Notes: a model not told the origin generated them from the sequence alone. A stretch of DNA of 64,000 nt from Nitrospirota bacterium (GCA_020851375.1 JADZCV010000044.1:192285-256284), one strand, 5' to 3'. Counted from the stretch's first letter, positions 4,215 through 64,000 are shown. Numbers and translations: made by a program.

Positions 4215-4234
4215 AAGGGTACCAAAGCCACCTG

Positions 4235-5911: not shown

Positions 5912-5919
5912 AATCCTTT

Positions 5920-42353: not shown

Positions 42354-44237
42354 TTATTTCACACCCTTCTTTAGCCCATAGGCACGCCTGAGATTGTTTT
42401 CCGCCTCTGCAAAACCAGGCTTCACACTCAAGGCAGTCCTGAATTCTGCGATTGCATCGTCTATACGGCCCTGATTGGCATATATGATCCCTATGTTATT
42501 ATATGCCTCGGCAGAATCAGGCTTCAGTCTGATCGTTGTCCTGAATTCTTCTTGGGCCTTGTCCGGATGTCCCTTCCTGAGCCAGGCAAGACCAAGATTA
42601 AAGTGGGCCCAGGCAAGCCCAGGATTCAGGTTTATGGCAGTTGTAAATTCCTCAATCGCCCTGGCCGTATCCCCTTTGGCTGAATAGGCAAGTCCAAGGT
42701 TTAGGTGGCTCAGTGCAACTTCAGGTTTCAGTCTTAAGGCAGTCTTATACTCCTCTATCGCCTCGTCTATCCTGCCCTGACTATAGTAAACAAGCGCCAG
42801 GTTATTATGGACGCTTGCTATCCCTGGTTTGAGCCTTATGGCAGTCCTGTATTCCCTGACCGCCTCCTCTGCCAGCCCCTGGTTAAATGAGGCATACGCA
42901 AGGTTCGAGTGCGTCCTTGCCTTAAGCGGGCTCTTACTCACAACATCCCTCCAGAGGGTTACGTGATCTTTCCAGACACGGTTTCTCTGATAAGAAGCCA
43001 CTGAAAGTGGCAGCACTGTAACCACAGCAAGTATCAGTACGGCAATCCGCAGAGACACCCGGCTGCCTGATTGTCTTCTCCAATAATCAATCCCATAAAT
43101 CATCGCCGAACAAAAGGCAGACGATGCCCCGGCAAACGGCAGATAGAGCCTGTGCTCGAAGATCACATCCCTGATGGGAATGACGCCCGACTCCACAGAC
43201 AGGGTGATAAAAAACCAGAATATCCCGAAAGAGCTCAGCAGGAGATAACCGTTCCTGCCTTTACGTGACCGGATAAAAAGCCAGACCGCAAGCCCAAAGA
43301 TGGCCAGGAGAAACATAAAAGACAAAAAGACCCCTGGTGCAGCAAAGGAGTGTAATACCGGGTAGTCGTAATCGAGATTCTGCCTTACCGGAAGCACCAG
43401 CAGCCTGATGTAGGTCACAATGACCCTGAACTGTGTCATCAGATAATCACCCCGTGAGATGCTCTCCGTCTCCTGGGCAGCATCTCTCACCTCTCCCACA
43501 ATATCCCCAATAGGCTTATCCGTATCCAGATTTATGAAGACTAATGGAATGATAGACAGGGTCAGGAGGAAGGGGATCAGAAAAAACGGCCTCTTCCACC
43601 TGTTTCCAAAAAAGAAAAACTCGTAAAGGAGGATAATAAAAGGGAGGGTAATGCTGATCTCCTTTGTCCTCATGGCAAGGACAGCAGCAAGTATTGAAAA
43701 GACATAATATATGCCCCTGAACCTGCTGCCTGGCTCAAGCGACTGCAGCCTCCACTTTGCAAAAAGCGCTACAGAAAGGAGATAAAACAGAGTTGCAAGG
43801 GAGGTATACCTCTGGACTATATAGGTCACAGCCTGTGTCTGTACAGGGTGGGCTACAAAGAGGAGGGCTGCTATCAGTGCAATGAACCCGCCGGATTGCT
43901 GCAGGCTGCCGGAGCCGCCCCCCATCCCCGGAGACCTGAATGTCAGGGTGATAAGCCACCATACGAGGATACCGTTTATAATGTGGATGACGATATTAAC
44001 CAGGTGATAGCCGGTAACGTTCAGTCCCCCAAAATAGTAGTTTAGGGCAAAAGAGAGTGTCCCTATGAAGCGTACCCCTTCTAAATCAGAAAATTTTGAG
44101 AGTTCTCTTATCTTCTGATATTCAATAATCTCAAAGTTGTCATCGAAGTGGAATGGGGATGAGAGGGTATTTGAATAGATTAAAACGGCTGATAGCGCAA
44201 TGAAGATTACAGGAATGACAAAACGGTATCTTGTCAA
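42354..44237 (-). CDS. TMTC-like protein: N-terminal polytopic membrane domain (DUF1736/PMT-like) fused to C-terminal TPR repeats
   Basis: About 10 TM segments with first-loop SSPFHFDDNFEI acidic motif; C-terminal 6 TPRs (LGLAYSAKGDTARAIEEF..., AEAYNNIGIIYANQGRIDDAIAEF...). Confidence 0.7.
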   Translation of the reverse strand: MTRYRFVIPVIFIALSAVLIYSNTLSSPFHFDDNFEIIEYQKIRELSKFSDLEGVRFIGTLSFALNYYFGGLNVTGYHLVNIVIHIINGILVWWLITLTFRSPGMGGGSGSLQQSGGFIALIAALLFVAHPVQTQAVTYIVQRYTSLATLFYLLSVALFAKWRLQSLEPGSRFRGIYYVFSILAAVLAMRTKEISITLPFIILLYEFFFFGNRWKRPFFLIPFLLTLSIIPLVFINLDTDKPIGDIVGEVRDAAQETESISRGDYLMTQFRVIVTYIRLLVLPVRQNLDYDYPVLHSFAAPGVFLSFMFLLAIFGLAVWLFIRSRKGRNGYLLLSSFGIFWFFITLSVESGVIPIRDVIFEHRLYLPFAGASSAFCSAMIYGIDYWRRQSGSRVSLRIAVLILAVVTVLPLSVASYQRNRVWKDHVTLWRDVVSKSPLKARTHSNLAYASFNQGLAEEAVREYRTAIRLKPGIASVHNNLALVYYSQGRIDEAIEEYKTALRLKPEVALSHLNLGLAYSAKGDTARAIEEFTTAINLNPGLAWAHFNLGLAWLRKGHPDKAQEEFRTTIRLKPDSAEAYNNIGIIYANQGRIDDAIAEFRTALSVKPGFAEAENNLRRAYGLKKGVK

Positions 44238-45913
44238 TTAGCCCCCCCTGAGTCCCCGTTATTGTAATTAATTTTATACAACACAAGAAGGTATTCCTCA
44301 GGGTCTTCTTTGGAGCTTATCCAGAAGACCTTCTCCATTTCAGGCACATTGACACCCTGATCCAGTAAAAATGACAACTCTGGCCGGAGCGCTACGGTGT
44401 TCCTGTCCACGCTTAAGATATCAACATGCCTGTTTTTTGCAAATTTCAATATCTCCTGATATTCTCCGTAAGGCAACACAACCCAGTCAGCGCCTGCATA
44501 CCAGGGGACAAAAGGGGACCTCGCCATTATAGTTGCATTATCTGGACCCCGTTTTATCACACGTTTTTTAATTTCTGTCCCTGCCAATTCAGATAATTCG
44601 GTCTTATGCTTTAAGGCAGCCAGGGTATGTTTTGTATTGATCAGACCCTTTTTATTACTCATCAAAATAAATCCAAGACACAAAAAAGATATAATCATTC
44701 CTGCATGTCTTAATCTGACTTTCTCTGCAAGATGACATATCTTGCATATCCCTCCTACTGCCCATACACCCAGGACCGGAATCAGGGGAACAAGGTATCT
44801 TTCCGGTCCAATAGCGCCGGTAAAGCCCCCTGCAAGGCTATAGAAAAGTATATATAAGATTACGTAGACACCGGGAAACAGTATAGCCCAGGCAGCGCCA
44901 TCACCCCCCCCTTTCCAATAAAATGCCGCTGCCACGAGGCCTATGAAGACAAAGACCAAAAACACTGTCCCCAGTATAAGGTGAATGGATTTCGCAATCT
45001 CTGTCCAATTGATTGCAACTCTCTTTAAAATAAAATCTGAGTGTCTTAAAACGTCCCCTATGGAGACGGGGGTTTTCATATCGTCAACAAAGGCATAACC
45101 TGTGCCGTCTTGATTGATCCTGCCCAGGAACCACTCACGTTCCATGTCATCCCGTAAATCAGGCATCATCAACTGACGGGTGATACTGTGTGCTGGCAGG
45201 CCGGAGACATTTCTTAGATCAAGGGACATGATCATTTTTAAAGGTCCTGCAATCAATAAAATTCCGAGGATCAGGAGCGCTGCATTCCTGATTATATTTG
45301 AAACCGGCTGCCTGTTAAACCATCTGTCCGCTATCACCCAGCAGATTGAGATAAAAGGGATGATAATACCAACATCACGCGTCATCCATGCAGCCCCGCT
45401 GAGCATCCCTGCAGCACACCACATCCACGGTATTTTACTCTTCAGTGCGCTATAGGTGACAAATATGCTGGCAAGGAAAATCAGGGTAAACAATGCCTCG
45501 GTTAATGGAAGTGATGAATATAATAGATAATATGGGTTTAGAATAGTTACAGGTACAATAAACCATGCAACCCTTTCTCTATAAAAACATCTTGTCAGAA
45601 AAAATACCGGGATCACAAGAAGTGTTGACGCTGCAATAGATACTATAGTCCCTGCCCTTTCAAAGCCTGTGAAAAACCACTCTGAAATTGCCACTATCAA
45701 TGGATATAGCGGGGGGGCGGTGTATGCACCTCTTAACCAGTGATCAATATGCCAATGGCCTTTCTGAATCTCCTGGGCCATCCTTAAGTACATGGTAGCA
45801 TCCGTCATACTGATGCGCCAGGGGCTGAGATATGCCACAAGAATAGCTGTACACAACATTAAAATACCTGTGGGTAGAAAAACTGAAAGGAGCTTAGATG
45901 ACTTGTCCCTCAT
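44234..45913 (-). CDS. ArnT/PMT-family (COG1807-like) GT-C membrane glycosyltransferase
   Basis: 559 aa, about 11 TM segments with large loops; general architecture of dolichyl/undecaprenyl-phosphate-sugar dependent GT-C enzymes. 4-nt overlaps with both flanking TMTC-like genes. Confidence 0.5.
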   Translation of the reverse strand: MRDKSSKLLSVFLPTGILMLCTAILVAYLSPWRISMTDATMYLRMAQEIQKGHWHIDHWLRGAYTAPPLYPLIVAISEWFFTGFERAGTIVSIAASTLLVIPVFFLTRCFYRERVAWFIVPVTILNPYYLLYSSLPLTEALFTLIFLASIFVTYSALKSKIPWMWCAAGMLSGAAWMTRDVGIIIPFISICWVIADRWFNRQPVSNIIRNAALLILGILLIAGPLKMIMSLDLRNVSGLPAHSITRQLMMPDLRDDMEREWFLGRINQDGTGYAFVDDMKTPVSIGDVLRHSDFILKRVAINWTEIAKSIHLILGTVFLVFVFIGLVAAAFYWKGGGDGAAWAILFPGVYVILYILFYSLAGGFTGAIGPERYLVPLIPVLGVWAVGGICKICHLAEKVRLRHAGMIISFLCLGFILMSNKKGLINTKHTLAALKHKTELSELAGTEIKKRVIKRGPDNATIMARSPFVPWYAGADWVVLPYGEYQEILKFAKNRHVDILSVDRNTVALRPELSFLLDQGVNVPEMEKVFWISSKEDPEEYLLVLYKINYNNGDSGGAN

Positions 45914-47649
45914 TTCTTCTTTTCCCCGGTACTATCCAGGAGGGCCTGAAGACGCACCCTCGTTTCCGCATGTGAGGGGTCCAGGGCAGCGGCATTCTGA
46001 TAGGCACGAATCGCCTCCTCGAACCTCCCCTCCTTCGTGTAGAGCACTCCCAGGTTAAAGAATGGCAGGTAGTTGTTGCTGTGACGCTGTATTGCCTTCA
46101 TAAAGATCTCTTCTGCAAGCCCCGGCCTGTTCTGTTCATAGTATATGATCCCGAGGTCATTATATATCTGCAGATTACCCGGATTGCCTTTAAGCAGATC
46201 TTCCAGTTCAGTGGCCGCAAGGTCCAGTTTCCCCTGGACTATATATATCTGGGCAAGGTTGTGTCTCGCTGTCAGACTCTCCTGTCCATCATGGATCGAG
46301 ATACTTGTGCGCAATGACTCAATGGCCTGATCATACATCTTCATGTCTTTGTATGCAATCCCAAGTCCTGCATGTGCGATGGATGAACCCGGGGCCTTTT
46401 TTACTGTATCTGTCCAGAGGGTCAGGTCATCCCTCCACTCCGTGTTCCGTATAATGGTCACTGCAGAATATGCTGCGCAAAGGGCAATCAAGAGAAACAG
46501 GGCAGCGGCCCGGGACACAGAACTACTCAATTTATCCAGGACAACACCTGCAAACACTGCCATAGTTATTATTGCCAGATATCCCCTGTGCTCCTGCAGT
46601 ATCAGGTTAAGGGGGATAACTGTCGTAGGCAGAAGCACGATAAAAAACCAGAACATGAAGAATGAAACAACCCGCCAGGACGCTGTGGATGACCGGAAAA
46701 GAAGCAGGGCAACTGCAGTATAGACAGAAAGCACAACTGCAGAAAAGATGACTGGAATCGTGACAGTCCTGTAGACCTCCATGTCGTGGACCAGGGTTAA
46801 TGGTATGGGGACAATAAACATCTGCAGATATTTAACAAGTGCAGGAAGTTCCGTAAAAAACTGGGTTACCGGATCCCTCTTAAATGAGTGAGGCGCCCCG
46901 CTGAAGGCAACCCCCCAGACATAGAGATAGGGTATGACCACAATAAGGATAAATGGAAGGTAGGGGGTATATTTGCGCCAGTCCTTTAAGTGGCGCTGTG
47001 CAGGGGTGCGTCGTTCCCGGAGGAGGTATACGTCATATAGCCATAATACGAGGGGAAGGGTGACGGCAGACTCCTTGCTCAGCATCCCTGCTGCAAAGGA
47101 AAGCAGGGATGCAATATAAAAAAAAAGGTTTAGATCCCTCCGGAACCTGACCCAGCAATAAAAGGCAGACAGATAGAAGAAACCGCTCATGACGCTGGAG
47201 CGCGTTGATATGTAATTTACGATCTCTGAGTTGAAGGGGTGGACGAGAAAGATGATGCCTGCTGACAGGGCCGCAAAAAAGGCCGGGGTGGTGAATATGG
47301 CCCGGACTATCAGAAAGAGCAGAAAGGCTGACCCGGCATGAAAGGCGAGGTTGACTATGTGGTATCCTGCAGGGTTTAGACCATTTACCCGGAAATTCAG
47401 TGCATAGGTCAACATCAGGAGGGGCCTGTACGGAGAGCCCCTTTTCATCCCCTCATTGCTGAATGTGGAGGGATCGGAAAAAAGGGAAGATAGCCCGGAC
47501 AGGTCCCGTATACCGGGATTCATGGTGATATGGTGGGCATCATCGTAGTGAAATGGATTGTGTATCGAGTTGTAGTAGAGCAGTCCTGCGATCAGTACAA
47601 AGGAAAGGAAGGTAGTGCAGACTATAACCCGGTTACTGTAACGACTCAT
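45910..47649 (-). CDS. TMTC-like protein (membrane domain + TPR), paralog 2
   Basis: First-loop HNPFHYDDAHHI motif, LVHPFNSEIVNYISTRSSVMSGFFYL block shared with the paralog at 62353, C-terminal TPRs (LGIAYKDMKMYDQAIESL...). Confidence 0.7.
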   Translation of the reverse strand: MSRYSNRVIVCTTFLSFVLIAGLLYYNSIHNPFHYDDAHHITMNPGIRDLSGLSSLFSDPSTFSNEGMKRGSPYRPLLMLTYALNFRVNGLNPAGYHIVNLAFHAGSAFLLFLIVRAIFTTPAFFAALSAGIIFLVHPFNSEIVNYISTRSSVMSGFFYLSAFYCWVRFRRDLNLFFYIASLLSFAAGMLSKESAVTLPLVLWLYDVYLLRERRTPAQRHLKDWRKYTPYLPFILIVVIPYLYVWGVAFSGAPHSFKRDPVTQFFTELPALVKYLQMFIVPIPLTLVHDMEVYRTVTIPVIFSAVVLSVYTAVALLLFRSSTASWRVVSFFMFWFFIVLLPTTVIPLNLILQEHRGYLAIITMAVFAGVVLDKLSSSVSRAAALFLLIALCAAYSAVTIIRNTEWRDDLTLWTDTVKKAPGSSIAHAGLGIAYKDMKMYDQAIESLRTSISIHDGQESLTARHNLAQIYIVQGKLDLAATELEDLLKGNPGNLQIYNDLGIIYYEQNRPGLAEEIFMKAIQRHSNNYLPFFNLGVLYTKEGRFEEAIRAYQNAAALDPSHAETRVRLQALLDSTGEKKK

Positions 47650-48443
47650 GGAGACTTAGCGCACCGGAAGCCCTGATCATAAGTAGTATGCCAGTCAAGC
47701 CCTCTCGTAGCAAGAGAGGACTCAATTGCATAACGGGAAGACGTTCGGGCATAACGATACAGGGGGGTCACGTACGACCCTCCACGCACTGACCTGTAAT
47801 TTCCACTGTAATATCCGTCCGGCAATGTATTTCCAGGATAGGCCTCATACCACCCGCCAGTCCACTCCCGCACATTACCGGTCATGTCATAGACTCCATA
47901 GGGGCTGACATCTTCAGGATAACTTCCAACAGGCGCACTCCATTTTCTACCTGACTCGAGGGTATTTGCCTTCCCTGCAGCATACTCATCCCCCCAGGAC
48001 CAGAGCCTGCCGTCCGTTCCACGGGCTGCCTTCTCCCACTCCGCCTCTAATGGGAGCCGCTTGCCAACCCATGTGCAATAGGCATCTGCATCCATCCAAT
48101 CTACATCAACGACCGGATGGTCATGCTCACCCTTTTCAAAGGTTCCCATCTCAGCCCAGGGAGCCGGGCGGTATACATTGTTTGTTTTAATTAGAAATTC
48201 ATAAAACTGGGCATTGGTGACCTCGTAACGGTCTATGTAAAAATCCTTTACATAAACCCTGTGCCTGGGGATTTCATCCACTCCTATCGTCATACCAAGC
48301 CGTCCTTCAGTTCCGCTGCTCCCCATCTCAAACCATCCAGCCGGTACAAAGACCATATTCTCCGGAGGTGAATTGCCGCGCATATTATACTGATGACTGC
48401 AGCCAAACAGTAGGGTTGCTAAAAGAAAGAGCACAGGAAGCAT
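47646..48443 (-). CDS. FGE-sulfatase (SUMF1/formylglycine-generating enzyme) domain lipoprotein, paralog A
   Basis: Lipobox MLPVLFLLATLLFGC at chosen start 48443 (the track start is 48614). Domain motifs RVYVKDFYIDRYEVTN, YCTWVGKRLPLEAEWEKAARGTDGRLWSWGDE, GVYDMTGNVREWT, RGGSY. Confidence 0.75.
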   Translation of the reverse strand: MLPVLFLLATLLFGCSHQYNMRGNSPPENMVFVPAGWFEMGSSGTEGRLGMTIGVDEIPRHRVYVKDFYIDRYEVTNAQFYEFLIKTNNVYRPAPWAEMGTFEKGEHDHPVVDVDWMDADAYCTWVGKRLPLEAEWEKAARGTDGRLWSWGDEYAAGKANTLESGRKWSAPVGSYPEDVSPYGVYDMTGNVREWTGGWYEAYPGNTLPDGYYSGNYRSVRGGSYVTPLYRYARTSSRYAIESSLATRGLDWHTTYDQGFRCAKSP

Positions 48444-48471
48444 CTTTTGTCTCCTTTCACCGGGAATATCA

Positions 48472-49302
48472 TCATAGACCATCCACAGCACACCGGAATC
48501 CGTGGGCCGGGTGGTCCCACTTTGGGGCAACTGCATGCCTGTAGGCACTCCTCGCAAAGGGCACGGACGGGTTCTCCCATGACCCGCCGCGTAAAACCTT
48601 GTATTTCTCACCAAATGCCTCCCTTTGAAGGGTACTGCCTGGATACGGCTTATACCATGATGATGTCCACTCCATCACACTCCCGGCCATATCGTAAATC
48701 CCGTAAGGGCTCACACCCTCAGGATAACTTCCGGCCGGTGTTGTCCAACCTGCTCGGGCCTCTCTCGTATTTGCCATTATCTTTCCTTCCGGACCAAAAA
48801 AATCATTTCCCCAGGGCCATTGACGGCCATCGGTTCCCCTTGCGGCCTTTTCCCACTCCTCTTCTGTCGGGAGCCTCTTACCAGCCCAACGGCAATAAGA
48901 ATCCGCATCATACCAGGATACGCCCTTCATCGGGTGAGTATCTTCCGGTTCAGGATAAACATTAATATATGACTCAATTGTCCATATCCTCGGGGCCTTT
49001 CTACCCGTGACATCCAAAAACCTCCTGTATTTCTCAACCGTAACCTCGAAACGGTCCATATAAAACCCATTCACATAGACACTGTGCTGAGGGATTTCAT
49101 CTACCCCCACTGATTGGCCAGGGATGCCATCATCTTCCCTGCTGCCCATAAGAAACCACCCTTCAGGTATATACACCATATCCGTGGTGTCTGGAACCGG
49201 TTTCACGCTGCTCACGGTATGAATGCACCCCGCAAGTAAGAGGACCGTCGTAAGACACACTGCAACCCGGCAGTTATTAATGAGCCCTGTCATCTTCCGC
49301 AC
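48472..49302 (-). CDS. FGE-sulfatase domain lipoprotein, paralog B
   Basis: Lipobox VCLTTVLLLAGC. Motifs YMDRFEVTVEKYRRF, YCRWAGKRLPTEEEWEKAARGTDGRQWPWGND, GIYDMAGSVMEWT, RGGSW. Confidence 0.75.
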   Translation of the reverse strand: MRKMTGLINNCRVAVCLTTVLLLAGCIHTVSSVKPVPDTTDMVYIPEGWFLMGSREDDGIPGQSVGVDEIPQHSVYVNGFYMDRFEVTVEKYRRFLDVTGRKAPRIWTIESYINVYPEPEDTHPMKGVSWYDADSYCRWAGKRLPTEEEWEKAARGTDGRQWPWGNDFFGPEGKIMANTREARAGWTTPAGSYPEGVSPYGIYDMAGSVMEWTSSWYKPYPGSTLQREAFGEKYKVLRGGSWENPSVPFARSAYRHAVAPKWDHPAHGFRCAVDGL

Positions 49303-50134
49303 AACGAAAACCTATTCCCCTGTGCCTGTAATCAGGCTTGAAGGTATTGGCCCGGTATGCTGCCCTGCTGTATGGCATGGCCGGCATAACTAACGACCCG
49401 CCCCGTGTGACTTTGTATGTCTCTCCAAAGGAATCCCTCTTAAGGGTGCTCCCAGGGTAGGGGAGGTACCAGGAGCTGGTCCATTCGCTCACATTACCGC
49501 ACATATCATAAACTCCATAAGGGCTTACGTCATCGCTGACACTTCCCGGAGGAAGGATCTGTCCCGGGCCTGCATACCGGGTGTTGCAGGTATGTCCTCT
49601 AAGATCACTCCCCCAGGGCCATTGGCGGCCGTCTGTGCCCCTTGCAGCCTTTTCCCACTCCTCTTCTGCAGGGAGCCTCTTTCCAGCCCAACGGCAGTAG
49701 GCATCCGCATCGTACCAGGTTATATTCGAGACAGGGATGTCTTCAGTTCCTTCTGGCGGGGTGTTGCCTTTCCACGAAGATGCCCCGGGATGTTTATCAT
49801 CAGGCGCTGAATGGCCGGTCGCATCAATGAAGGCCTTGTACTGACGGTTAGTCACCTCGTACCTGTCAATATAAAATGCCTTCAGATATACTGACCGCTG
49901 GGGAATCTCATCCACCCCCACGGACTGGCCCACCAACCCATCCTTCTCAGTGCTACCCATGATGAACTCTCCTGCAGGTACATGCGCCATCTGTTCCTCA
50001 GTCACCGTCTGACCGGCAGATGATGCAGTCACGACCATTCCTGCCAGGAAAACCTGCACTAATAAAAACAATGCGCCTGCCTGCTTCACCTGATTTTCAT
50101 CTGCCTTTGTGAGCCCTGGCTCATGACGGTTCAC
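49277..50134 (-). CDS. FGE-sulfatase domain protein, paralog C (signal-anchor N-terminus)
   Basis: YIDRYEVTNRQYKAF, YCRWAGKRLPAEEEWEKAARGTDGRQWPWGSD, GVYDMCGNVSEWT, RGGS. GTG start at 50134; the first roughly 10 codons lie inside the repeat's module C. Confidence 0.75.
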   Translation of the reverse strand: MNRHEPGLTKADENQVKQAGALFLLVQVFLAGMVVTASSAGQTVTEEQMAHVPAGEFIMGSTEKDGLVGQSVGVDEIPQRSVYLKAFYIDRYEVTNRQYKAFIDATGHSAPDDKHPGASSWKGNTPPEGTEDIPVSNITWYDADAYCRWAGKRLPAEEEWEKAARGTDGRQWPWGSDLRGHTCNTRYAGPGQILPPGSVSDDVSPYGVYDMCGNVSEWTSSWYLPYPGSTLKRDSFGETYKVTRGGSLVMPAMPYSRAAYRANTFKPDYRHRGIGFRCAEDDRAH

Positions 50135-50332
50135 CTGAAAACGCTCCTATTCTCCCGTCATTCCCACGGAACCTGTCCCCGCAGGATTTTTCACCCCGTC
50201 ATTCCCACGCAAGTGGGAATCCAGAACCAGGCCCACGGTCTGGATTCCCGCTTACGCGGGAATGACGTTTTCATGAACCCTGGTGAGCCCCGAGCTCATG
50301 ACGGTTCATCCAAAAATGCTCATGTGTAGCTG
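50103..50332 (-). repeat. composite palindromic repeat, copy 7 (module C inside the CDS N-terminus, leader, hairpin, core, second module C)
   Basis: gtgagccctggctcatgacggttcac + ctgaaaacgctcctattctcccgtcattcccacggaacctgtccccgcaggat... cgtcattcccacgcaagtgggaatccagaaccaggcccacggtctggattcccgcttacgcgggaatgacg ... gtgagccccgagctcatgacggttcat. Confidence 0.85.
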
Positions 50333-53023: not shown

Positions 53024-53102
53024 TGAATTATTATATATATAATTTAAAACCTGTCAACGGAATCTGCCCTGATTCATAAAGACAGCCATAGGGCGACTCA
53101 GG

Positions 53103-53846
53103 TTACCACAGTCCGGATCGTTTCAGCCTGTACAGTCTGAATACAACCAGAGGTGAAAACAGAGACAACAGCCCGGCAACAGCGCCTCCGGAAGTGGTTG
53201 GGCGGCTGCCCTGAGTCATGATAGTCCCGCATCCCAGCCCGCTTCCACTGCCAGAGCCTGAGTTAACTGACGATTCCTTTGATAACACTAACTGAAACAA
53301 CCTTGGATCTTTACCGGCCGATATATAGGAATAGCCGGAGTCCCGCGTAATATCTGCCAGCGCCATCTCCTGGCCGGCCCCGGCTCTATGAACATCCTTC
53401 AGGAGAAGGACCTCACCAGGTTTTAACTGACCCGGCAGGACATTCCAGCTCAGATCAACCTTTTTACCTGCAGGCACAGAATCTACGGTAATCTCCCATG
53501 AACTATCCCCGTTAGTTGATGTCCCTCTTATATCCTTCCATAGATATTTTGCCGCATCTGCAGCCCCATCCCTGCCCCGGATATAAGCCCTCAACAGCAC
53601 AGGATTCTCAGAATCATTGGCAGGATCAGACAGGGAAATCAGTGCAGGTGTATCCCAGAGGTTGTCAAAATCATCTGTAGCGCCCTGCTCTATGCCTACT
53701 ATCAGCTTGTTGTACAGCCTCGTATTGTCCCCGCCGGTTGTGGAAATCTCAATCGGCACCTTCCACGCGAAGGCAGATGTCAGGAATATACATTGCAGGA
53801 AAAAAATAAAAAAAGATATTGTGGATCTGCTAATCACTTTGCTCAT
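53103..53846 (-). CDS. secreted protein with C-terminal sorting-signal-like tail (Gly/Ser-rich linker, hydrophobic helix, basic end)
   Basis: Signal peptide MSKVISRSTISFFIFFLQCIFLTSAFA (start 53846; the track start is 53891). C-terminus GSGSGSGLGCGT...SGGAVAGLLSLFSPLVVFRLYRLKRSGLW. Confidence 0.6.
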   Translation of the reverse strand: MSKVISRSTISFFIFFLQCIFLTSAFAWKVPIEISTTGGDNTRLYNKLIVGIEQGATDDFDNLWDTPALISLSDPANDSENPVLLRAYIRGRDGAADAAKYLWKDIRGTSTNGDSSWEITVDSVPAGKKVDLSWNVLPGQLKPGEVLLLKDVHRAGAGQEMALADITRDSGYSYISAGKDPRLFQLVLSKESSVNSGSGSGSGLGCGTIMTQGSRPTTSGGAVAGLLSLFSPLVVFRLYRLKRSGLW

Positions 53847-53847
53847 C

Positions 53848-56162: not shown

Positions 56163-59100
56163 CTAATACGGTACCAGTAATTCAAATGCGCCGCCAACAG
56201 CCTGCAATCTGATCCAGTAGGCCTTCCATGGCTGCATCACAGGGCTGCAGCGGGTGCCTTGATGCTCTCCTGCCACGTCACTGGCACAGGTCTCAAACGT
56301 ATAATTGATGCCATTGTAGGTATAAATAGACCCATCAAGCCAGTTCAGGGCTGCAACTGCATCCTGGAATGACGCTACCTGCACCTGTCCCTGAACCGTC
56401 CGCCTGACATACAGGCCCTGCTCCCGCTCTTCTATACTGCCATTGCCATTGGCATCTACAGGGCTGAAGTTTGTCTCCTTGTCAAACGGGTTGCCGATCA
56501 TGTTCCATCCACCCTTAATTGATAATGCGTAGCACTCAAAGGCGCCCCCATTATCGTCAGTACAGGTCTCAGTGGAAGACTGAGTTGACGCAGGGGGGAC
56601 ATCAAGCGTGAACTTTCCAGCCGGTGCCCAAAGTAAATATCCGGTACCTTCGCTGACAGAGGTCAGCCTTGAACATGTATATTGTGCCGGATTTGAACTG
56701 AAAGGGCCCGGCTCTCCATCATAACAGCCGCTGTCAAAGTCTGATCCCCTTGAATCCCACCGGTATACCTGCAGCTTATAGTCCGGGGTCACTACGTCAT
56801 CACCAAATACATCCTTAGGTGTATCAGGATTGGGATGATACGGCACAGATATCAGGTTGTATGCATAGGGGGCAAGGGGTGTCATACCCTTTGCCGGCCC
56901 GGTTGAGATAAGGGACCTATGGTCCTCAGCTACTGAGGAGTTCGCATCCGCCCCCCTCTCATCCAGTGCCCTGATAGCAAAATAGAACCTTGTATTCAGT
57001 GTCCTGTCGTCAATCACCCCGCCGCCTGTGTCTATCTTATTCTCAACAGGGACAATGTAGCATTCCTTCATTCCTGGTGTGCGGGGGGCCAAAAACCCTT
57101 CTGCCGGTGCAGCAAGTATTGCATTGGAGAATGGAATCTGGCCGGGACCAGGTGCTGAACTATCAACGACGATCTCTCTCGTGGAATAGCGCATGTCATA
57201 TCCTGTAACAGCCCCTGAGGACATATCTGACCCGTCGTCCGGCGGCGCAGTCCAGCAGAGTGTCATGGTGTCTTTTGACGCATCTGTTACCGAAAGGTCT
57301 GAAATAGCGCCAGGCCTTGTTGTATCATCCGATACGAGCGTGTGTGCCGGACATCCGGAACAGGTCGAGATAGAAGAGACATTGCCTGCATCATCCGTTG
57401 TCTTAAGTGCAATGTAATAATTGGTATTGGCAAATAGCTGCGAAATCGTGCATGACTCAGACTCCCCTGCAGATTTGGGCTTTCCAGGTATACTTTCTCC
57501 GGCTTTACAACTGACTGCCCTGGCCGCCTGTATGAAGTTGCCATCTGTAATAGGGGATGTTGAATACCGCAGGTCATAGTATGCTGCGGTATCACTCATA
57601 CCGTCATCTCCTGGTGACGTCCATGAGACCTTGAAAGAGGTTGCAGTAATATCGCTAATGTCAAGGACTACAGAGGCAGGGGGTGTCGTATCACTACTGT
57701 TGATAACCGCCCTGACTGAATCAACCTTTCCGCTGTCCCCGGTTGAACGAATATCAAACAGGATCGTCTCAGAACCTGAGGTAAATGACGAAGGCGGGGT
57801 AATCCGGAAAGTAAAGAATGGGAACTCTCCCCCGTTATAGTTCGCCGGATTCCCTGCAGTTGCAGTCGGTACATTCACAGGGGAGCTGTACTCAACAACA
57901 CTGCCGTCATTTAGTCTCTCCTGCATCACAACACCCCAACCGCCGGATGGCGTGTTCCAGGAAATAAGATAGCTGTCTGCAATATTCCCTTCATTCTGTA
58001 CGCCAACCGTTATCTCCTTAGATGAGCCGTTTGAGATGTCAAGTGCGGTGCAACCACCGTTGCCTAAACCCAGCGCCCCGTATATGTTGTCCCCGGCCCC
58101 CGCTGTACCACAGCCTGCACCCAAAGTTCCGTAGCCTGAAATAGTACCTCCCGCATTATAACCAAAACCATAGATGACCCCGTCAACTTTGTAGGTCGCC
58201 TTTAAATCGAGGCGGGCCTTGAGCGAGTCCATATATTGTGCAGCGCCGTTAGAATAGATATTGACGTCAATATCTGCTGCCCGGGGCTGGCCTGCCGGAA
58301 TAATTTTTAATGTAAATATCTGTTCAAAATCACTGTGGGGCTGAGACCTTACCGGCGCAGTGGTAAACCCGACTGATGCTGTAATGCCATGATCGCCTGA
58401 ATCGTCACTGATAACTGCTGTCCAGCCAACAGGGAGAGGGTTTCGGAGAGAGAGGGTATAGGTATCCGGAACATTCCCCTCATTTTGCAGGGTAATAGTA
58501 TATGAGATGCTGTCCCCTGGCCCCGCCTCCTTAATCTGGGACGTGCCACCTCCTCCGGTGCGGGCCGGGTCATACTGGTTGTTTCCATCTCCGTCAATCA
58601 GGCCATCCGCCTGATAAATACTGTTGATTTGTGTGGCTGCCCGGATAGAATCTACCTTCGCATAATCATTTTCCGAGCGGAGATTAACGATAATGTCCTG
58701 CGTGACAGCGCCCGGGGCATATGCAGAAGGGGTAACCTTCAGTGTATAGGCCTTTTCCGAACCCGCGTTCAGTGATACGGAGGCAGGGGATGTCAGGTCA
58801 GCGTTGCTGTCATTCAATAAGACCGCCCAGTCCCCGGATATATCTGAAGGGGTGTTCCAGGAAATAATAAAGGTATCGTCCACACTCTGAGATGTGCCGT
58901 CATTTTGAACCTGTATATCATACGTAAGCGGCTGCTGGAGCCTGAATCCGGGATCTGCGTTCTTTGAAGCCTCCCCTCCTGCACCTGATCCAAAGGACCC
59001 GTAAGCATTATCACCATTTGCCTCAATGATCAGGTCAGGCTGGTACACACCACTCGCTGTAAAATAGCCGATCCGGCTTTCACGTAAAAACGGGGTCACT

Positions 59101-61502
59101 GTACCCAGCTCTGAAAACAGGATGACCCTGTATTGCAGCCACTGGTCGTTATTATTGCCGCTATAGCCGCTCCTGTGGGCCGGGTTTATCGGCTCCCTTC
59201 CATCAGGGTCAGTATAGGTATCTGTAAAGGTAGATCCGGATGAATATGTATAAGAAGTGGCTGAGTCAAGTGTAATAACAGATGTTGCCAGATTGACATC
59301 TGTGATCTTTTTTGTTTCATTCTGATTGGCGTTTGCACTATTGGTAATAGTGACCCTGCCGCCGGCACTGAAGCCGGCCGCACTTCCCACGGAAATCTGA
59401 GAAACACCTTTTGCGGCTGAAAATGTCGTTGAATGGGGCCCATACCACTGACTCCATGAGGAACCGTTAGGAGATGTCCTTAACTGGAGCGAAACATCAG
59501 TACCTGCGGGGATATCCTCTGACCATTTCCAGCGATTGATGACATCAGCTGTATCTGTTGTATCATAGGGTGAACTGATCAGCATCTGCAGGGAGGGTAT
59601 CTCCTCAAAATTTATCGTTACATCGTTTAGTTTCGGGTCATATGCCGGGTCAATCTCAGGCCTCTCGAAAAAGGCCTTGAAACGTATGTAGCGCCGTTCA
59701 TTATGACCCTGATTAATGGTGGCCCCGGGGCTTACATAGTCATAACCAGACTCCCCTGGAAGCTCCTCATAATTCCACGTCTGGTTATCGTTATTCGTGG
59801 CAATCTGAAACTTAAGTGATGAACCTGCAGGCACAGTAGCGCCCCATGTAATGGATTTAAAAAAGGCCCCGCCAGTACCAATATCAAATGAAGGGGACTC
59901 ATAGGCGCCGAGAAGAAAAGAAGCCAATCCATAATTAACCGTCACATCCTGCAGTACAGGACTGTCGGCAAGATCGGTCGTCGCCCGGTGGAAAAAGGCC
60001 TTGTACCGGACATAGCGGTCTCTGTCATGGACTGAAGAGATGGCAGCAGGAGAACTGTCATAATATGTGCCTGATGTCCCGTCCGGCCCCTTAAAATTCC
60101 ATGTCTGGTTATCGTTATTTGTGGCAATCTGAAATTTCAGAGTAGACCCTGAAGGTACGGTCGCGTTCCAGACAAGGGTATGCAGGAGGGCCCCCCCGGG
60201 ACCTGTATCAAATGAAGGGGACTCGTAACTGCCGTCAGTAAATCCGGCGGCAATCCTTAAAGAGGCATTCACGTCAGGATAGGCGGTTTTCACATCAAAG
60301 GCATCTACTCCTACCGCTACATTTAATGCACTGTTGTTTTTCTTCCCTGTGACCACAATCCTCAGGGTATGTGCGGTGTTGCTCAGACCGCTGACTGTAA
60401 ACAGGGATTGCCTGGACAGGAGTGTGCTGCTGTAAAGGTCAACACTCCCCTGAAGCTGCCCGTCGAGGAAGACATTTGCTATTCCAAAATCACGGTATTT
60501 TGGACCATACCAGGTCGCCTGCGTCCCTGTAAAGGCAAGGGTAGCAGAAGCGCCTGTTTCAATGGAAAATATAATGGTCCCGCCATAGGCACCTGAAGAA
60601 AACCACTGCCCGGTCGTGACCACAGCAGGATTTGTCTCCTCATATGTTGTCGTGGCATAGTATCCGGTCCCAACCAGTTGCAGGTTAGTCAGTGTCCCCC
60701 TGTCAAAATCAAGCAGATCTGCCTTCTGCGTAACAGAAGATGTCCCATCAACGAAGGTTATGTATGCACCGGCGTCCGGGTTCGGAACACCTACAATAAA
60801 GGCATACACTCCCACGGCAGGATCGGATGAACTGCTGTTTTTCCTGCCTGTGACCACAATCCTGAGGGTATGCTGTGTGTTGCTCAGACCACTGGCTGTA
60901 AAGAGGGTCTGCTGAGACTGGAGTGTGCTGCTGTACAAGTCAACGCTCCCCTGAAAGTTTCCATCCAGATAAACATCTGCAATTCCAAATGAATTGTATT
61001 TCGGCCCAATCCATGTCGCCTGCGTTCCTGTAAAGGTAAGGGTAACCGTAGCGCCTGTCTCTACAGAAAAAATATACCTTCCACCGGAAGGATTATATAA
61101 CGTTGAAGAATACCACTGCCCGGTCTTGCTGACTACCGACGTATTATCTTCCTGATATGTTGTGTAATTATACCCACCTGTCCCGACCAGTTTGAGATTG
61201 GTCAGGGTACCCCTGTCGAAATCATTCAGGTCTGCTGTCTGAATTATGGAGGCAGGTTGAGGGAAAATAGAAAGCTCTCCGGCTATTGAGGTACTTACAT
61301 ATGGGTCCTTACTGTAAAATTTGGTCCATCCGGTTTGTCCACCAGGATGGACTGCAGTGGCAGAGGTATCAGCTCCTCCTGTCCAGTCGCTCTGGACCCA
61401 GTTATAATTGGAGGCATAAAGGGACCCAGGTGTACATAACAGAATAAGGGTCAAAATTTGCACTATAAATGCCTTTGCCTTATCTCTCATGTCTGTATCC
61501 AT
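56163..61502 (-). CDS. giant secreted surface protein (1779 aa) with internal tandem duplicated domains, FN3 domains and a conserved C-terminal domain
   Basis: Signal peptide MDTDMRDKAKAFIVQILTLILLCTPGSLYA. Two roughly 173-aa tandem repeats (ADLNDFDRGTLTNLKLVG... / ADLLDFDRGTLTNLQLVG...) and a second repeat pair (GSTLKFQIATNNDNQTWNF / GSSLKFQIATNNDNQTWNY). FN3 motifs SWTSPGDDGMSDTAAYYDLRYS and CWTAPPDDGSDMSSGAVTGYDMRYS. Ser/Thr-rich. Confidence 0.7.
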   Translation of the reverse strand: MDTDMRDKAKAFIVQILTLILLCTPGSLYASNYNWVQSDWTGGADTSATAVHPGGQTGWTKFYSKDPYVSTSIAGELSIFPQPASIIQTADLNDFDRGTLTNLKLVGTGGYNYTTYQEDNTSVVSKTGQWYSSTLYNPSGGRYIFSVETGATVTLTFTGTQATWIGPKYNSFGIADVYLDGNFQGSVDLYSSTLQSQQTLFTASGLSNTQHTLRIVVTGRKNSSSSDPAVGVYAFIVGVPNPDAGAYITFVDGTSSVTQKADLLDFDRGTLTNLQLVGTGYYATTTYEETNPAVVTTGQWFSSGAYGGTIIFSIETGASATLAFTGTQATWYGPKYRDFGIANVFLDGQLQGSVDLYSSTLLSRQSLFTVSGLSNTAHTLRIVVTGKKNNSALNVAVGVDAFDVKTAYPDVNASLRIAAGFTDGSYESPSFDTGPGGALLHTLVWNATVPSGSTLKFQIATNNDNQTWNFKGPDGTSGTYYDSSPAAISSVHDRDRYVRYKAFFHRATTDLADSPVLQDVTVNYGLASFLLGAYESPSFDIGTGGAFFKSITWGATVPAGSSLKFQIATNNDNQTWNYEELPGESGYDYVSPGATINQGHNERRYIRFKAFFERPEIDPAYDPKLNDVTINFEEIPSLQMLISSPYDTTDTADVINRWKWSEDIPAGTDVSLQLRTSPNGSSWSQWYGPHSTTFSAAKGVSQISVGSAAGFSAGGRVTITNSANANQNETKKITDVNLATSVITLDSATSYTYSSGSTFTDTYTDPDGREPINPAHRSGYSGNNNDQWLQYRVILFSELGTVTPFLRESRIGYFTASGVYQPDLIIEANGDNAYGSFGSGAGGEASKNADPGFRLQQPLTYDIQVQNDGTSQSVDDTFIISWNTPSDISGDWAVLLNDSNADLTSPASVSLNAGSEKAYTLKVTPSAYAPGAVTQDIIVNLRSENDYAKVDSIRAATQINSIYQADGLIDGDGNNQYDPARTGGGGTSQIKEAGPGDSISYTITLQNEGNVPDTYTLSLRNPLPVGWTAVISDDSGDHGITASVGFTTAPVRSQPHSDFEQIFTLKIIPAGQPRAADIDVNIYSNGAAQYMDSLKARLDLKATYKVDGVIYGFGYNAGGTISGYGTLGAGCGTAGAGDNIYGALGLGNGGCTALDISNGSSKEITVGVQNEGNIADSYLISWNTPSGGWGVVMQERLNDGSVVEYSSPVNVPTATAGNPANYNGGEFPFFTFRITPPSSFTSGSETILFDIRSTGDSGKVDSVRAVINSSDTTPPASVVLDISDITATSFKVSWTSPGDDGMSDTAAYYDLRYSTSPITDGNFIQAARAVSCKAGESIPGKPKSAGESESCTISQLFANTNYYIALKTTDDAGNVSSISTCSGCPAHTLVSDDTTRPGAISDLSVTDASKDTMTLCWTAPPDDGSDMSSGAVTGYDMRYSTREIVVDSSAPGPGQIPFSNAILAAPAEGFLAPRTPGMKECYIVPVENKIDTGGGVIDDRTLNTRFYFAIRALDERGADANSSVAEDHRSLISTGPAKGMTPLAPYAYNLISVPYHPNPDTPKDVFGDDVVTPDYKLQVYRWDSRGSDFDSGCYDGEPGPFSSNPAQYTCSRLTSVSEGTGYLLWAPAGKFTLDVPPASTQSSTETCTDDNGGAFECYALSIKGGWNMIGNPFDKETNFSPVDANGNGSIEEREQGLYVRRTVQGQVQVASFQDAVAALNWLDGSIYTYNGINYTFETCASDVAGEHQGTRCSPVMQPWKAYWIRLQAVGGAFELLVPY

Positions 61503-61562
61503 TTATAAGATAAGTATTGCAAATAACATGCCCCCTTTCCAGCTCATCTCAACTGATACGGG

Positions 61563-62378
61563 TTACTTTCTACCCTCCCTGGGTGTGTCAAGTGCAGCCA
61601 ACCGCTGTTCTGCAAGTTTGACAAAGTTTTCTGTCTGAGGCCTTTTTGAGGCCCTCTCCCTGACGATCTTGTATTGCCTGGATGCCAGATCTCTTTTCCC
61701 CTGGGCCTCATAGACCCTGGCCAGGTTAAAGTAGGTTGGGTAGTAATCCGGGTTTCGCTTTATAGATGCCCCAAATGCCTGGATCGCCCTGTCAAAATTC
61801 TTCATGTTCGCATAAATCGTCCCTGCATTGTTGAACACCTGGTAGGAGGCGGGATCCTTCTTGCCCACCTCATGATACACCTGCAGCGCCTTTTCCAGCC
61901 TCCCCATCCTCTGGTAGGTCACCCCAAGTGAATACATTACATCCACACGGTCAGGGGCAAGCTTCAATGTCCTCTCAAAGGACTCAACTGCCTTATCATA
62001 ATCCTGTGCCCTCATATAGGATAAAGACAAACCATAGTTGGCTGCAAAAGCGTCTGGTTTTGCACTTACACTTTTCTGGAACTCTTTAATGGCCTGCCCA
62101 TAATTCCCTGCCTTAAAGAAATCCTCACCCATCTTCTGATGTTTGGTGTAATAATTCGGGTCAGACTTCTCCATATACTTAAAGACATAAATCCCAGCCG
62201 GGATAACCACCAGCAACGCCACAAACAAAATCACAATATACTTCCAGGGCAGGCGTCTGCTCAGGGAAGGTCCACCCTCCAGGTTCTCCCCAGACCCGCG
62301 GGCCTGTTGAATAATTTCCTCTCCTGCAGTGTCATCCCTGTCCATGCCTTCTCTAATTTCCGGACTCTTGTCGTCCAT
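61563..62378 (-). CDS. TPR-repeat protein with single N-terminal membrane anchor
   Basis: WKYIVILFVALLVVIPAGIYVF TM then 5 TPRs (AIKEFQKSVSAKP..., YSLGVTYQRMGRLEKALQVY..., FNLARVYEAQGKRDLA...). Confidence 0.7.
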   Translation of the reverse strand: MDDKSPEIREGMDRDDTAGEEIIQQARGSGENLEGGPSLSRRLPWKYIVILFVALLVVIPAGIYVFKYMEKSDPNYYTKHQKMGEDFFKAGNYGQAIKEFQKSVSAKPDAFAANYGLSLSYMRAQDYDKAVESFERTLKLAPDRVDVMYSLGVTYQRMGRLEKALQVYHEVGKKDPASYQVFNNAGTIYANMKNFDRAIQAFGASIKRNPDYYPTYFNLARVYEAQGKRDLASRQYKIVRERASKRPQTENFVKLAEQRLAALDTPREGRK

Positions 62379-64000
62379 TTTCCCTTCTCCTTGCCTTAAT
62401 GTTATATTGTTTCAGTCTTTCGAGGCGTATGCCTGCCTCGCTGGAAAGGTCCCCTTCATCTCCATGCGCATTTTCCGCCACTATGCGATATTGTTCAGCC
62501 GCCTCCTCCTTTTTGCCGGATTCCTCCAGCAGCATCCCGAGGTTAAACCGTGAATACAGGTCGCCGGCAGATAAAGAAATGGCCTGTTTATAGGCATGGA
62601 CTGCCTCTTCAAGCCTGCCCTCTTTAGTATACAGGACACCCATGTTGTAATAGGCTTTATAATATCCGGGGTTTAATCTCGCAGCCTCCCTGAAATGCTT
62701 CTCAGAAAGATCAAGCCGGTCCATCCGGAAATAGGCCACAGCAAGATCATGATGAGTCTCTGCCTTAAAATAAAACGCCCTGAGGGCCTTCTCAAATTCC
62801 TGAGCCGCCATATCCCAGTTCTTCCGGGTCATATAGATCCTTGCCATAGCATCGTGTACAATAAAGTTGTCCTCCCCCCCTAATATCAGCGCCTTTTGAA
62901 ATGCATCAAATGCATCATTATACATTCCCCGCCAATGGTATGCAACCCCTAACGCCGTGTACCCCAGAGGAGATTGAGGTTCCTTTTGGACTGTGTCCCT
63001 CCATAAGGTCAGGTCATCCTTCCAAACCCTGTTCCGCTGGATAACGAGCGCCGAATATATGACGATCAGAAAGACAAGAAGAACGACCCCGGTCTTCCCC
63101 CGCATTTTTTTATCAAGCTCTCCTATGGCTATGCCTGCCAATACCACAAAACTGACACAGGCAAGATATCCCCTGTTTTCCTGAAAGATGGCATTCAACG
63201 GAATGATCGTGGTAGGCAATAGAACAATGAAAAACCACAACATAAAAAATGAGATATTCTTAAGCAAACGGGAAGAGGAGCGCAGAAGGAGTATCGCAAT
63301 AATAGTATAAACTGTAAGGAGAATGGCAGAAGAGATCACTGGAAAAGACCAGAAGGTCCTGAGTATCTCTACATGGTGGACCGGGGTCAGGTGAAGCGGG
63401 ATCAGGAACAGCTTCCAGTGCAGGATAAGGACAGGCAGGGAGGTCAATATCTGTGAAAATATGTCACGCTTGAAATGTGGCAGCACTCCGCCGGGAGAAT
63501 AAAACCACATGACAACATATGGGATCACAAATATTATAACAAAGGGGAGATAGGGGATGTATGTGCGCCAGTTAAATAAAATCCGGAGCGCTGAATGCCG
63601 GGCATCAGGTTCAGAATACCGGTTTTTTTTAAAATACAGATCATATAGCCATAGCACAATGGGCAGAGTTATTACAATCTCTTTACTCAGCATGCCGAGT
63701 ATAAAGACAAGGAGGGAGGCTGCGTAGTAAATTCCCCTTTCCCCCACTTTGTTAACGGTGGAAAAAGGGGGAATATTCCTGAACATTACCCAGCAGTAGA
63801 AGCCGAGCAGGTAGAAGAACCCGCTCATCACACTGAACCGTGCGGTAATGTAATTCACCGCCTCGGAGTTAAACGGGTGGACAAGAAAGATGAGACCGGC
63901 TGCCAGCGGGGTCAATATTCCCCCGGACCCTGCCCCCCCCAACATGGCCTGCAGGATCAGAAAGACCAGAAATGCCGACCCTGCATGAAAGGCCAGATTT
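62353..64000 (-). CDS. TMTC-like protein (membrane domain + TPR), paralog 3; 5' end beyond window
   Basis: LIFLVHPFNSEAVNYITARFSVMSGFFYL block homologous to residues about 120-150 of the 579-aa paralog, so the true N-terminus lies beyond 64000. C-terminal TPRs (LGVAYHWRGMYNDAFDAF..., YNMGVLYTKEGRLEEAVHAY...). Confidence 0.65.
   Translation of the reverse strand, partial: NLAFHAGSAFLVFLILQAMLGGAGSGGILTPLAAGLIFLVHPFNSEAVNYITARFSVMSGFFYLLGFYCWVMFRNIPPFSTVNKVGERGIYYAASLLVFILGMLSKEIVITLPIVLWLYDLYFKKNRYSEPDARHSALRILFNWRTYIPYLPFVIIFVIPYVVMWFYSPGGVLPHFKRDIFSQILTSLPVLILHWKLFLIPLHLTPVHHVEILRTFWSFPVISSAILLTVYTIIAILLLRSSSRLLKNISFFMLWFFIVLLPTTIIPLNAIFQENRGYLACVSFVVLAGIAIGELDKKMRGKTGVVLLVFLIVIYSALVIQRNRVWKDDLTLWRDTVQKEPQSPLGYTALGVAYHWRGMYNDAFDAFQKALILGGEDNFIVHDAMARIYMTRKNWDMAAQEFEKALRAFYFKAETHHDLAVAYFRMDRLDLSEKHFREAARLNPGYYKAYYNMGVLYTKEGRLEEAVHAYKQAISLSAGDLYSRFNLGMLLEESGKKEEAAEQYRIVAENAHGDEGDLSSEAGIRLERLKQYNIKARRRENGRQESGN

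Follow-up and report, generated by a model that had tools for sequence, protein, structure and literature searches.

Does a bacterial locus that combines membrane glycosyltransferases (GTs) bearing tetratricopeptide repeats (TPRs) with giant secreted proteins bearing immunoglobulin (Ig)-like and fibronectin type III (FN3) domains encode a protein O-glycosylation system, and are those secreted proteins its substrates? This question is raised by a stretch of 64,000 nucleotides from a Nitrospirota bacterium (GCA_020851375.1 JADZCV010000044.1:192285-256284), hereafter the window, in which all genes lie on the minus strand. Between positions 42,354 and 64,000, three paralogous genes, A, C and L, encode a membrane domain followed by TPRs. 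They lie in one block with B, which encodes another GT-C-type membrane protein, with K, which encodes a TPR-only membrane protein, and with H, I and J, which encode secreted proteins (Table 1). A first reading of the DNA alone (the original prediction) likened A, C and L to the TMTC proteins of animals and suggested that the block may be a dedicated glycosylation machinery for the adjacent surface proteins. Metazoan TMTC1-4 (CAZy GT105) are protein O-mannosyltransferases of the endoplasmic reticulum that act on the Ig-like domains of cadherins and protocadherins. The comparisons described below indicate that A, C and L share ancestry with the TMTC proteins, and on balance we think it probable that they are TMTC-type O-glycosyltransferases with an undecaprenyl-phosphate (Und-P)-linked sugar as donor and a protein as acceptor.

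Both A and C consist of a polytopic membrane domain of about 420 amino acids (aa) followed by TPRs, and Pfam TPR families match A, C and L with E values of ~3e-23 (C) to 1e-38 (A). An AlphaFold2 model of A based on 60 homologues (mean predicted local distance difference test score, pLDDT, 88.8; predicted template modelling score, pTM, 0.87) shows 11 long transmembrane (TM) helices, followed by 12 helices that make up about six TPRs. Structure prediction, which had been proposed as a check on the GT-C-like nature of the membrane domain, thus gives a GT-C fold with 11 TM helices, and the best structural matches of this domain in a fold search are Pmt4 and Pmt2. Judging from the 11 TM helices and the Asp-Asp motif of loop 1, the TPR domain of A, C and L should face the periplasm. 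Neither Pfam nor NCBIfam models match the membrane domains of A, C and L even at E = 10, and the proposed profile search with DUF1736 and PMT_2 accordingly returned nothing for these three proteins. Since the Pfam models are blind to A, C and L, profile-profile comparison and the fold search were needed to place them.

For the profile-profile comparison, the TMTC side was represented by the published alignment of 12 metazoan TMTC1-4 N-domains in the supplement of Eisenhaber et al. 2021 (PMC7801869), and the bacterial side by a 19-sequence profile of the membrane domain. HHalign aligns the two profiles end to end over 387 columns with a probability of 99.9% and an E value of 2.9e-33. A or C alone reaches a probability of 99.6% against TMTC, C with an E value of 7e-24, and the controls from the same window, namely the B family, a 660-aa PMT_2 protein and a 570-aa open reading frame (ORF), reach 4.7%, 0.3% and 0.1%, respectively. 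The relationship is also visible in BLASTP, by which C and zebrafish TMTC1 share 31% identity over 224 aa (89 bits).

Conservation within the bacterial family was assessed in an alignment of 60 sequences with a mean column identity of 35%. The acidic motif of loop 1 directly follows TM1 and reads PFHFDD in A (28-33) and PFHYDD in C; its first Asp (D32) is invariant and its second (D33) is conserved in at least 90% of the sequences. The first ~100 residues of L, including this motif, lie outside the window, and an identical Logan contig supplies an N-terminus with NPFQYDD and HYRP. The earlier statement that all three paralogs carry the acidic motif is therefore true, with the qualification that the window itself displays it in A and C. 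Further motifs of A are HP (130-131), R143, KEISIT (192-197), DYDY (289-292) and EHRLY (361-365). K192, E193, T197, E361, R363 and Y365 are invariant, as is D32, and D291 is conserved in at least 90% of the sequences.

These residues fall on the motifs of TMTC, which have been tied to catalysis, metal binding and binding of dolichol-phosphate mannose (PMC7801869), and the metal- and dolichol-phosphate-mannose-binding motifs described there are conserved in the bacterial family. The bacterial Asp-Asp pair aligns with FV(F/H)DD of TMTC motif M1. In M2 (SHKSYRP, likewise in loop 1), only the Arg (R56) is invariant, C having SPYRP, L HYRP and A GVRFIG. In M3 (loop 2), HP(V/I)QTQAV, with H130 and P131, and R143 are conserved and align with HPIHTEAV and the Arg of RxD, the Asp of which is not retained. 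K192, E193 and T197 align with KE(T/Q)GIT or KE(T/Q)xxT of M4 (loop 3), D291-Y292 with the TMTC DW of M5 (loop 4), and E361 and Y365 with the Glu and Tyr of ERxxY of M7 (loop 5). The motifs common to TMTC and the bacterial family can thus be written as DD, (S)YRP, HP.(H/Q)T(E/Q)AV..R, KE..T, D(W/Y) and E.R.Y. The end-to-end HHalign alignment and the position of the invariant residues on the TMTC motifs show A, C and L to be true bacterial homologues of TMTC, belonging to the TMTC branch of GT-C (GT105-like), and more than look-alikes. The likeness to TMTC1-4 proposed at the outset therefore extends over the whole catalytic domain and includes an identical domain order.

Other assignments fit less well. 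A, C and L match no protein O-mannosyltransferase (PMT) model and the model of A contains no MIR domain, and so they are not members of PMT/GT39. In this respect they differ from the fungal and actinobacterial PMTs (GT39): Pmt4 and Pmt2 are their best structural matches, but A, C and L have no MIR, PMT or PMT_2 matches. An identity as an O-antigen ligase (Wzy_C) fused to TPRs was rejected, as the fold and the profile alignment place the domain in GT-C/TMTC and there is no Wzy_C match. Family profiles run against all PDB sequences gave 0 matches (profile A3) and one chance match (profile A4).

Two further characterised enzymes share the architecture. Pseudomonas aeruginosa TfpW is a D-arabinofuranosyl transferase for pilin. 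It is predicted to have 11 TM helices, requires a DDx motif in periplasmic loop 1, carries a C-terminal periplasmic TPR domain and has been modelled on ArnT. Its likeness to A, C and L is one of architecture. Since TfpW combines a GT-C domain with periplasmic TPRs and glycosylates a protein, the remark in the original prediction on the lack of a known characterised bacterial example does not hold for the architecture. Unlike tfpW, which lies directly downstream of pilA, the genes described here have no pilin family among the results of general Pfam scans of their neighbours. TMEM260 (GT117), the substrates of which are Ig-like IPT domains, likewise has 11 TM helices and TPRs. Bacterial proteins distantly homologous to it have been noted, but A, C and L have no DUF2723 match. 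With TMTC, A, C and L share the 11-TM GT-C domain followed by C-terminal TPRs, predicted to be extracytoplasmic here too, and the occurrence of several paralogs per genome. Unlike TMTC, they are bacterial and so presumably use an Und-P-linked donor, and their genes sit within glycan-biosynthesis loci.

A second group of known systems pairs a polyprenyl-phosphate sugar synthase of family GT2 with a GT-C protein, as in GtrA/B/C, GT136 and ArnC/ArnT. In the streptococcal GtrB/PgtC2 pair this combination serves protein O-glycosylation, PgtC2 targeting Ser/Thr-rich disordered tails, not folded domains. Three-component systems of this kind mostly modify glycans or lipid A (PMC11127046). The present locus resembles them in that a synthase is encoded in the window and that family members have a GT2 gene as their most frequent neighbour, but the GT-C partners of the known systems belong to other families without TPRs, and the C-terminal extension here is a TPR domain, not a carbohydrate-binding module.

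The bacterial family is large. A word-indexed search was saturated at more than 7,700 matches. When all of 1.84 billion cluster representatives were searched with a profile, 95,283 proteins matched at E <= 1e-3, of which 21,319 reached E <= 1e-30; the former figure counts clusters at 50% identity and may include eukaryotic TMTCs. Among the best 150 matches, lengths range from 456 to 930 aa and mostly fall at ~550-800 aa, a size that would accommodate a membrane domain plus TPRs. Carriers include Nitrospirota, Thermodesulfobacteriota, Geobacteraceae (among them the cultured Geomonas and Geotalea), Anaeromyxobacter, Omnitrophota, Planctomycetes, Bacteroidetes and others. Their genomes often encode several paralogs. 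The usual annotation is 'tetratricopeptide repeat protein', and one JGI record reads 'protein O-mannosyl-transferase'. Prokaryotic members have been remarked upon before ('homologues even among prokaryotes', PMC7801869), and the literature searched holds no assigned substrate for any bacterial member. The architecture, bacterial protein O-glycosylation by GtrB plus GT-C and the existence of prokaryotic TMTC homologues are thus already known. What the end-to-end homology adds is a concrete hypothesis, namely an Und-P-sugar donor, an Asp-Asp site in loop 1 and choice of the acceptor guided by the TPRs, with a bearing on the evolutionary origin of domain-specific O-mannosylation.

To see what accompanies such genes elsewhere, the neighbourhoods of relatives in 80 loci from other species were compared (locus labels such as L003 refer to these). 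Two to five tandem paralogs are present in 17 of the 80 loci. The commonest neighbour is not an Ig/FN3 protein but a GT2 resembling dolichol-phosphate mannose (DPM) synthase and GtrB, found within 10 kb in 26 of the 80 loci and in 19 of the 43 loci of at least 15 kb. A recurrent module consists of a short GT2, with or without a DUF2304 protein, and a TMTC-type gene, often together with a PMT_2 GT-C gene, inside Wzx/GT4 loci; the short GT2 lies beside relatives in L004, L086 and L088. The window itself encodes two GT2s whose best matches are dolichol-phosphate mannose synthase, ArnC and GtrB, and the longer of them shares 46% identity with the GT2 that most often accompanies the family.

These observations lead to a plausible scheme. 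A cytoplasmic GT2 of the DPM-synthase/GtrB/ArnC type would load one sugar onto undecaprenyl phosphate, and the lipid-linked sugar would then be flipped to the periplasmic face of the membrane. There, the 11-helix domain would transfer the sugar to a hydroxyl group of the acceptor through the Asp-Asp pair of loop 1 and the loops that carry KE..T, D[YW] and E.R.Y, while the periplasmic TPR solenoid would hold or select the acceptor. The three paralogs may differ in their range of clients, with K as a possible adaptor, and B may attach another sugar or act on another acceptor. The scheme builds on the fold, the homology with TMTC, the conserved motifs, the order of the domains and the donor synthases encoded in the window. 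A monophosphate donor would follow from the chemistry of the homologues and from the GT2 neighbours. The acceptor would most probably be Ser/Thr residues of periplasmic or surface proteins, because all three characterised kinds of GT-C-plus-TPR enzyme (TMTC1-4, TMEM260 and TfpW) act on proteins. That H, I and J, or the FGE-sulfatase-domain lipoproteins D-F and cytochrome G, whose genes are coupled to C-B-A by translation or by position, are among the clients is suggested much more weakly; for H, I and J it is suggested by adjacency in this lineage and nothing else.

The candidate acceptors have the features that drew attention to them. I contains two He_PIG stretches (putative Ig domain) and fn3, J contains fn3 and a DUF11 repeat, and both begin with a hydrophobic signal-like segment, so that secreted proteins of 686 and 1779 aa with Ig or FN3 domains are indeed encoded here. 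Their description as Ser/Thr-rich needs to be toned down. Ser plus Thr account for 20.2% of the residues of J, 17.2% of H and 16.2% of I, compared with 9-13.6% in the 12 other proteins tabulated, which is a real enrichment; it is modest and without long Ser/Thr tracts, and since the richest 40-residue window reaches only 38%, there are no mucin-like tracts. H and I have in common an N-terminal domain of ~140 aa (E 3e-11), and I and J a C-terminal domain of ~200 aa (E 3e-12). In J, two copies of a module of ~170 aa can be recognised by eye (TADLNDFDRGTLTNLKLVGTG... and KADLLDFDRGTLTNLQLVGTG...). H has no Pfam or NCBIfam match. Over its last 50 residues, H runs from a (GS)n linker through GCG into a hydrophobic TM segment and closes with the tail RLKR, a layout that resembles exosortase, rhombosortase or MYXO-CTERM sorting signals, although no NCBIfam model of these matched.

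Several observations weigh against A, C and L being protein O-glycosyltransferases with H, I and J as clients. With respect to the enzymes, several of the seven TMTC motifs deviate from the consensus. In the bacterial family, RxD has Ser, Thr or Ala where TMTC has Asp, and the invariant Arg of M7 (R363) lies one residue later than in ERxxY. The TM7-TM8 loop is too divergent for DUF1736; none of 19 family members matches DUF1736, PMT_2 or DUF2723, for DUF1736 even at E = 10. No GtrA or MATE flippase was found among the ORFs of at least 120 aa, smaller ORFs being unscanned. With respect to the acceptors, the assignment is inferred for every candidate, and homologues of I lie near relatives in 2 of the 80 loci, whereas neither J nor H has a homologue there. 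In favour of protein clients, 13 of the 80 loci encode large secreted beta-propeller or Ig-like proteins no farther than 6 kb from the gene, directly adjacent in 3, and similar neighbours are present in L004, L086, L087 and L088. The density of large Ser/Thr-rich secreted neighbours by distance is 0.069, 0.056 and 0.027 per flank (7, 5 and 2 ORFs), a fall-off that is not significant and has no taxon-matched background set, and this trend is a hint, not a result. Finally, the block adjoins a polysaccharide island, to which a glycan acceptor fits equally well, and relatives are embedded in polysaccharide loci, in L004 and L086 between the GT4, PMT_2 and GT2 genes of Wzx loci.

The last of these points lead to the alternative that A, C and L, and B with them, add side-chain sugars to O-antigen, capsule or exopolysaccharide in the periplasm, much as ArnT or the three-component systems of the Gtr and GT136 kinds do, the TPR domain docking on the export or assembly machinery. 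We regard this as possible, if rather doubtful. An association with lipid or lipopolysaccharide modification genes, which according to the original prediction would point to a lipid-linked acceptor, is partly present: A is followed by the regulator gene and then by an island of methyltransferase, Wzx, DegT, GT1/GT2/GT4, NeuB, AsnB and ABC-2 genes, and this arrangement of regulator and island beside A is kept in L003 and L085. Protein glycosylation loci, such as the pgl loci of Campylobacter and Neisseria, also cluster with glycan-synthesis genes, and the glycan context thus does not discriminate between the two kinds of acceptor. Nor does the fold fix the acceptor, because the YfhO family serves teichoic acids and proteins alike. 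The combination of a polyprenyl-phosphate-sugar synthase with a GT-C protein is a signature of extracytoplasmic glycan modification; however, the glycan-modifying GT-C of GT136 bears a carbohydrate-binding C-terminal module, not TPRs (PMC11127046), and the nearest proteins by sequence (TMTC) and by fold (Pmt4 and Pmt2) are protein O-mannosyltransferases.

Another alternative keeps the protein acceptor and changes the clients: A, C and L would modify envelope proteins genome-wide, or the FGE lipoproteins and the cytochrome, and the adjacency of the Ig/FN3 proteins would be incidental. This appears unlikely, with arguments on both sides. Overlaps of 4 nt link D to C, C to B and B to A, and the order of three FGE genes followed by C and A is kept in L003. 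FGE genes adjoin relatives in L013, L029, L045 and L087, and FGE genes, G-like cytochrome genes or both lie near relatives in these loci and in L031. A sigma-70 consensus before G could part the unit G..A from L..H, and the family of the I/J domain is tiny compared with that of the enzymes: the domain has only 2 relatives among 5.8 billion proteins, both on short contigs, vs ~95,000 clusters for the enzymes. Against this, FGE genes are neighbours in only 3 and G-like cytochrome genes in only 5 of the 80 loci, L and K lie directly upstream of J, and several relatives adjoin genes for large Ig-like or beta-propeller proteins.

The boldest possibility is that bacterial TMTC homologues glycosylate folded Ig-like, FN3 or beta-propeller surface domains through their TPRs, with L/K and C/B/A acting here on H, I and J. 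We consider it quite improbable as it stands. The original idea of a dedicated machinery for the neighbouring Ig/FN3 proteins is not borne out by the 80 loci and draws on adjacency in this lineage only. In a BLASTP co-occurrence survey of every window protein against these loci, H, I, J, B, the 660-aa PMT_2 protein and Wzx did not emerge as conserved partners. If the boldest possibility were true, the O-mannosylation of animal cadherins and plexins would descend from a widespread multi-paralog prokaryotic system, and the locus would pair enzymes with their substrates and so give access to a family of ~95,000 clusters. Novelty would lie in an experimental demonstration that this very large bacterial family glycosylates folded domains of surface proteins; the locus offers candidate clients without proof and is in this sense a lead, not a discovery. 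The remaining view, that A, C and L are inactive TPR scaffolds on a degenerate GT-C-like membrane anchor, accords with the lack of any Pfam glycosyltransferase match and with the loss of the RxD Asp but is rejected as highly improbable, given the invariance of the residues for catalysis and phosphate binding; taken together, the catalytic, metal- and phosphate-binding positions of TMTCs are invariant or at least 90% kept in the 60 sequences.

The gene coordinates and the anatomy given in the original prediction are correct, and its interpretation is supported in part. D-F, G and the glycan island downstream of A, with its two polyprenyl-phosphate sugar synthases and at least one additional GT-C gene, go unmentioned in it. 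The order of transcription in the block is L, K, J, I, H, G, F/E/D, C, B, A, and the K and L genes overlap by 26 nt. Features of the block and of the rest of the window are collected in Table 1.

Table 1. Genes of the block and other features of the window, in window coordinates (wHTH, winged helix-turn-helix).
Feature	Coordinates	Strand	Remarks
A, 627 aa, TMTC-type GT-C	42354..44237	-	11 TM helices (1-423), ~6 TPRs (425-623)
B, 559 aa, PMT/ArnT-like GT-C	44234..45913	-	small C-terminal alpha/beta domain
C, 579 aa, TMTC-type GT-C paralog	45910..47649	-	PFHYDD, SPYRP, ~4-5 TPRs
D, E, F, three FGE-sulfatase-domain paralogs	47646..50134	-	Pfam E 3e-51, 9e-57, 8e-54
G, 896-aa multihaem c-type cytochrome	50333..53023	-	Paired_CXXCH_1 E 2e-20
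H, 262-aa secreted protein	53103..53891	-	N-terminal domain common to I
I, 686-aa secreted protein, candidate acceptor	53848..55908	-	He_PIG x2, fn3, C-terminal domain common to J
J, 1779-aa secreted protein, candidate acceptor	56163..61502	-	repeated N-terminal modules, DUF11, fn3
K, 271 aa, TPR-only membrane-anchored protein	61563..62378	-	one TM segment (48-66)
L, third TMTC-type GT-C paralog, incomplete at window end	62353..64000	-	45% identity to C
wHTH regulator	41474-42154	-	199 bp from A
PMT_2-type GT-C, 660 aa	39332..41314	-	PMT_2 E 3.7e-9; downstream of wHTH regulator
GtrB/ArnC/DPM-synthase-like GT2, 324 aa, candidate Und-P-sugar donor maker	3273..4247	-	5mlz (DPM synthase) E 2.8e-12, ArnC match
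Short GT2, 229 aa, second candidate donor synthase	1159..1848	-	5mlz E 6.2e-19, ArnC E 7e-18, GtrB E 2e-9
Polytopic ORF, 570 aa, without Pfam match	4235-5947	-	~11 hydrophobic segments; overlaps GtrB-like GT2 gene

K was described as a TPR-only membrane protein, and it does consist of a single TM segment followed by TPRs (Pfam E 1e-29). The fold of B is clearly GT-C, as had been supposed for the gene between A and C. B scores 24.8 bits against Pfam PMT_2, below the cut-off of 26.1, and has no MIR domain; D38 in its loop 1 is invariant, and its family is rare. B is thus a second GT-C, unrelated to A, C and L.

D and E carry lipobox signals. G has an N-terminal anchor and 11 CxxCH motifs plus one CxxxxCH motif (12-haem). 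FGE pairs occur beside relatives of A in several phyla, sometimes with a G-like multihaem cytochrome or a UbiA prenyltransferase. The sigma-70 consensus upstream of G is perfect (TTGACA, 16 nt, TATAAT; 12/12; 53057..53030, minus strand) and ends 7 nt upstream of the G ATG. If functional, it would imply a leaderless or nearly leaderless transcript and a unit G..A separate from L..H. The window contains 30 promoter-like sites vs 26 in shuffles, and scans for terminators and promoters found no more sites than in shuffled sequence.

Downstream of A and the wHTH regulator gene lie ~40 kb of glycan biosynthesis genes (window 1-42154). In addition to the genes named above, including those for the 660-aa PMT_2 GT-C and the DegT aminotransferases, this island holds genes for a CMP-sugar synthase, a GDP-mannose dehydratase and many methyltransferases. 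The Wzx-type flippase gene is at 37158-38468, the ABC-2 exporter pair at 11130-13225 and, in the middle of the island, a GIY-YIG nuclease gene at 27584-28003. GC content along the island varies from 0.39 to 0.55, which suggests a mosaic origin from two or more glycan pathways. The 660-aa PMT_2 gene is absent from the orthologous loci L003 and L085. The polytopic 570-aa ORF resembles a candidate GT-C (GtrC-like) partner in a classical Gtr-type pair and may be another GT-C.

Small DUF2304 membrane proteins accompany the short GT2 in L086 (10122-10472) and L088 (6800-7186), and phmmer finds them in 4 of the 80 loci; membrane helices that a full-length GtrB has in cis may thus be contributed in trans by these proteins. 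A second family that combines a polytopic membrane domain with TPRs (~820 aa; L036 14316-16772) lies near TMTC-type genes in 8 of the 80 loci and could be another GT-C-plus-TPR lineage, perhaps similar to TMEM260/DUF2723.

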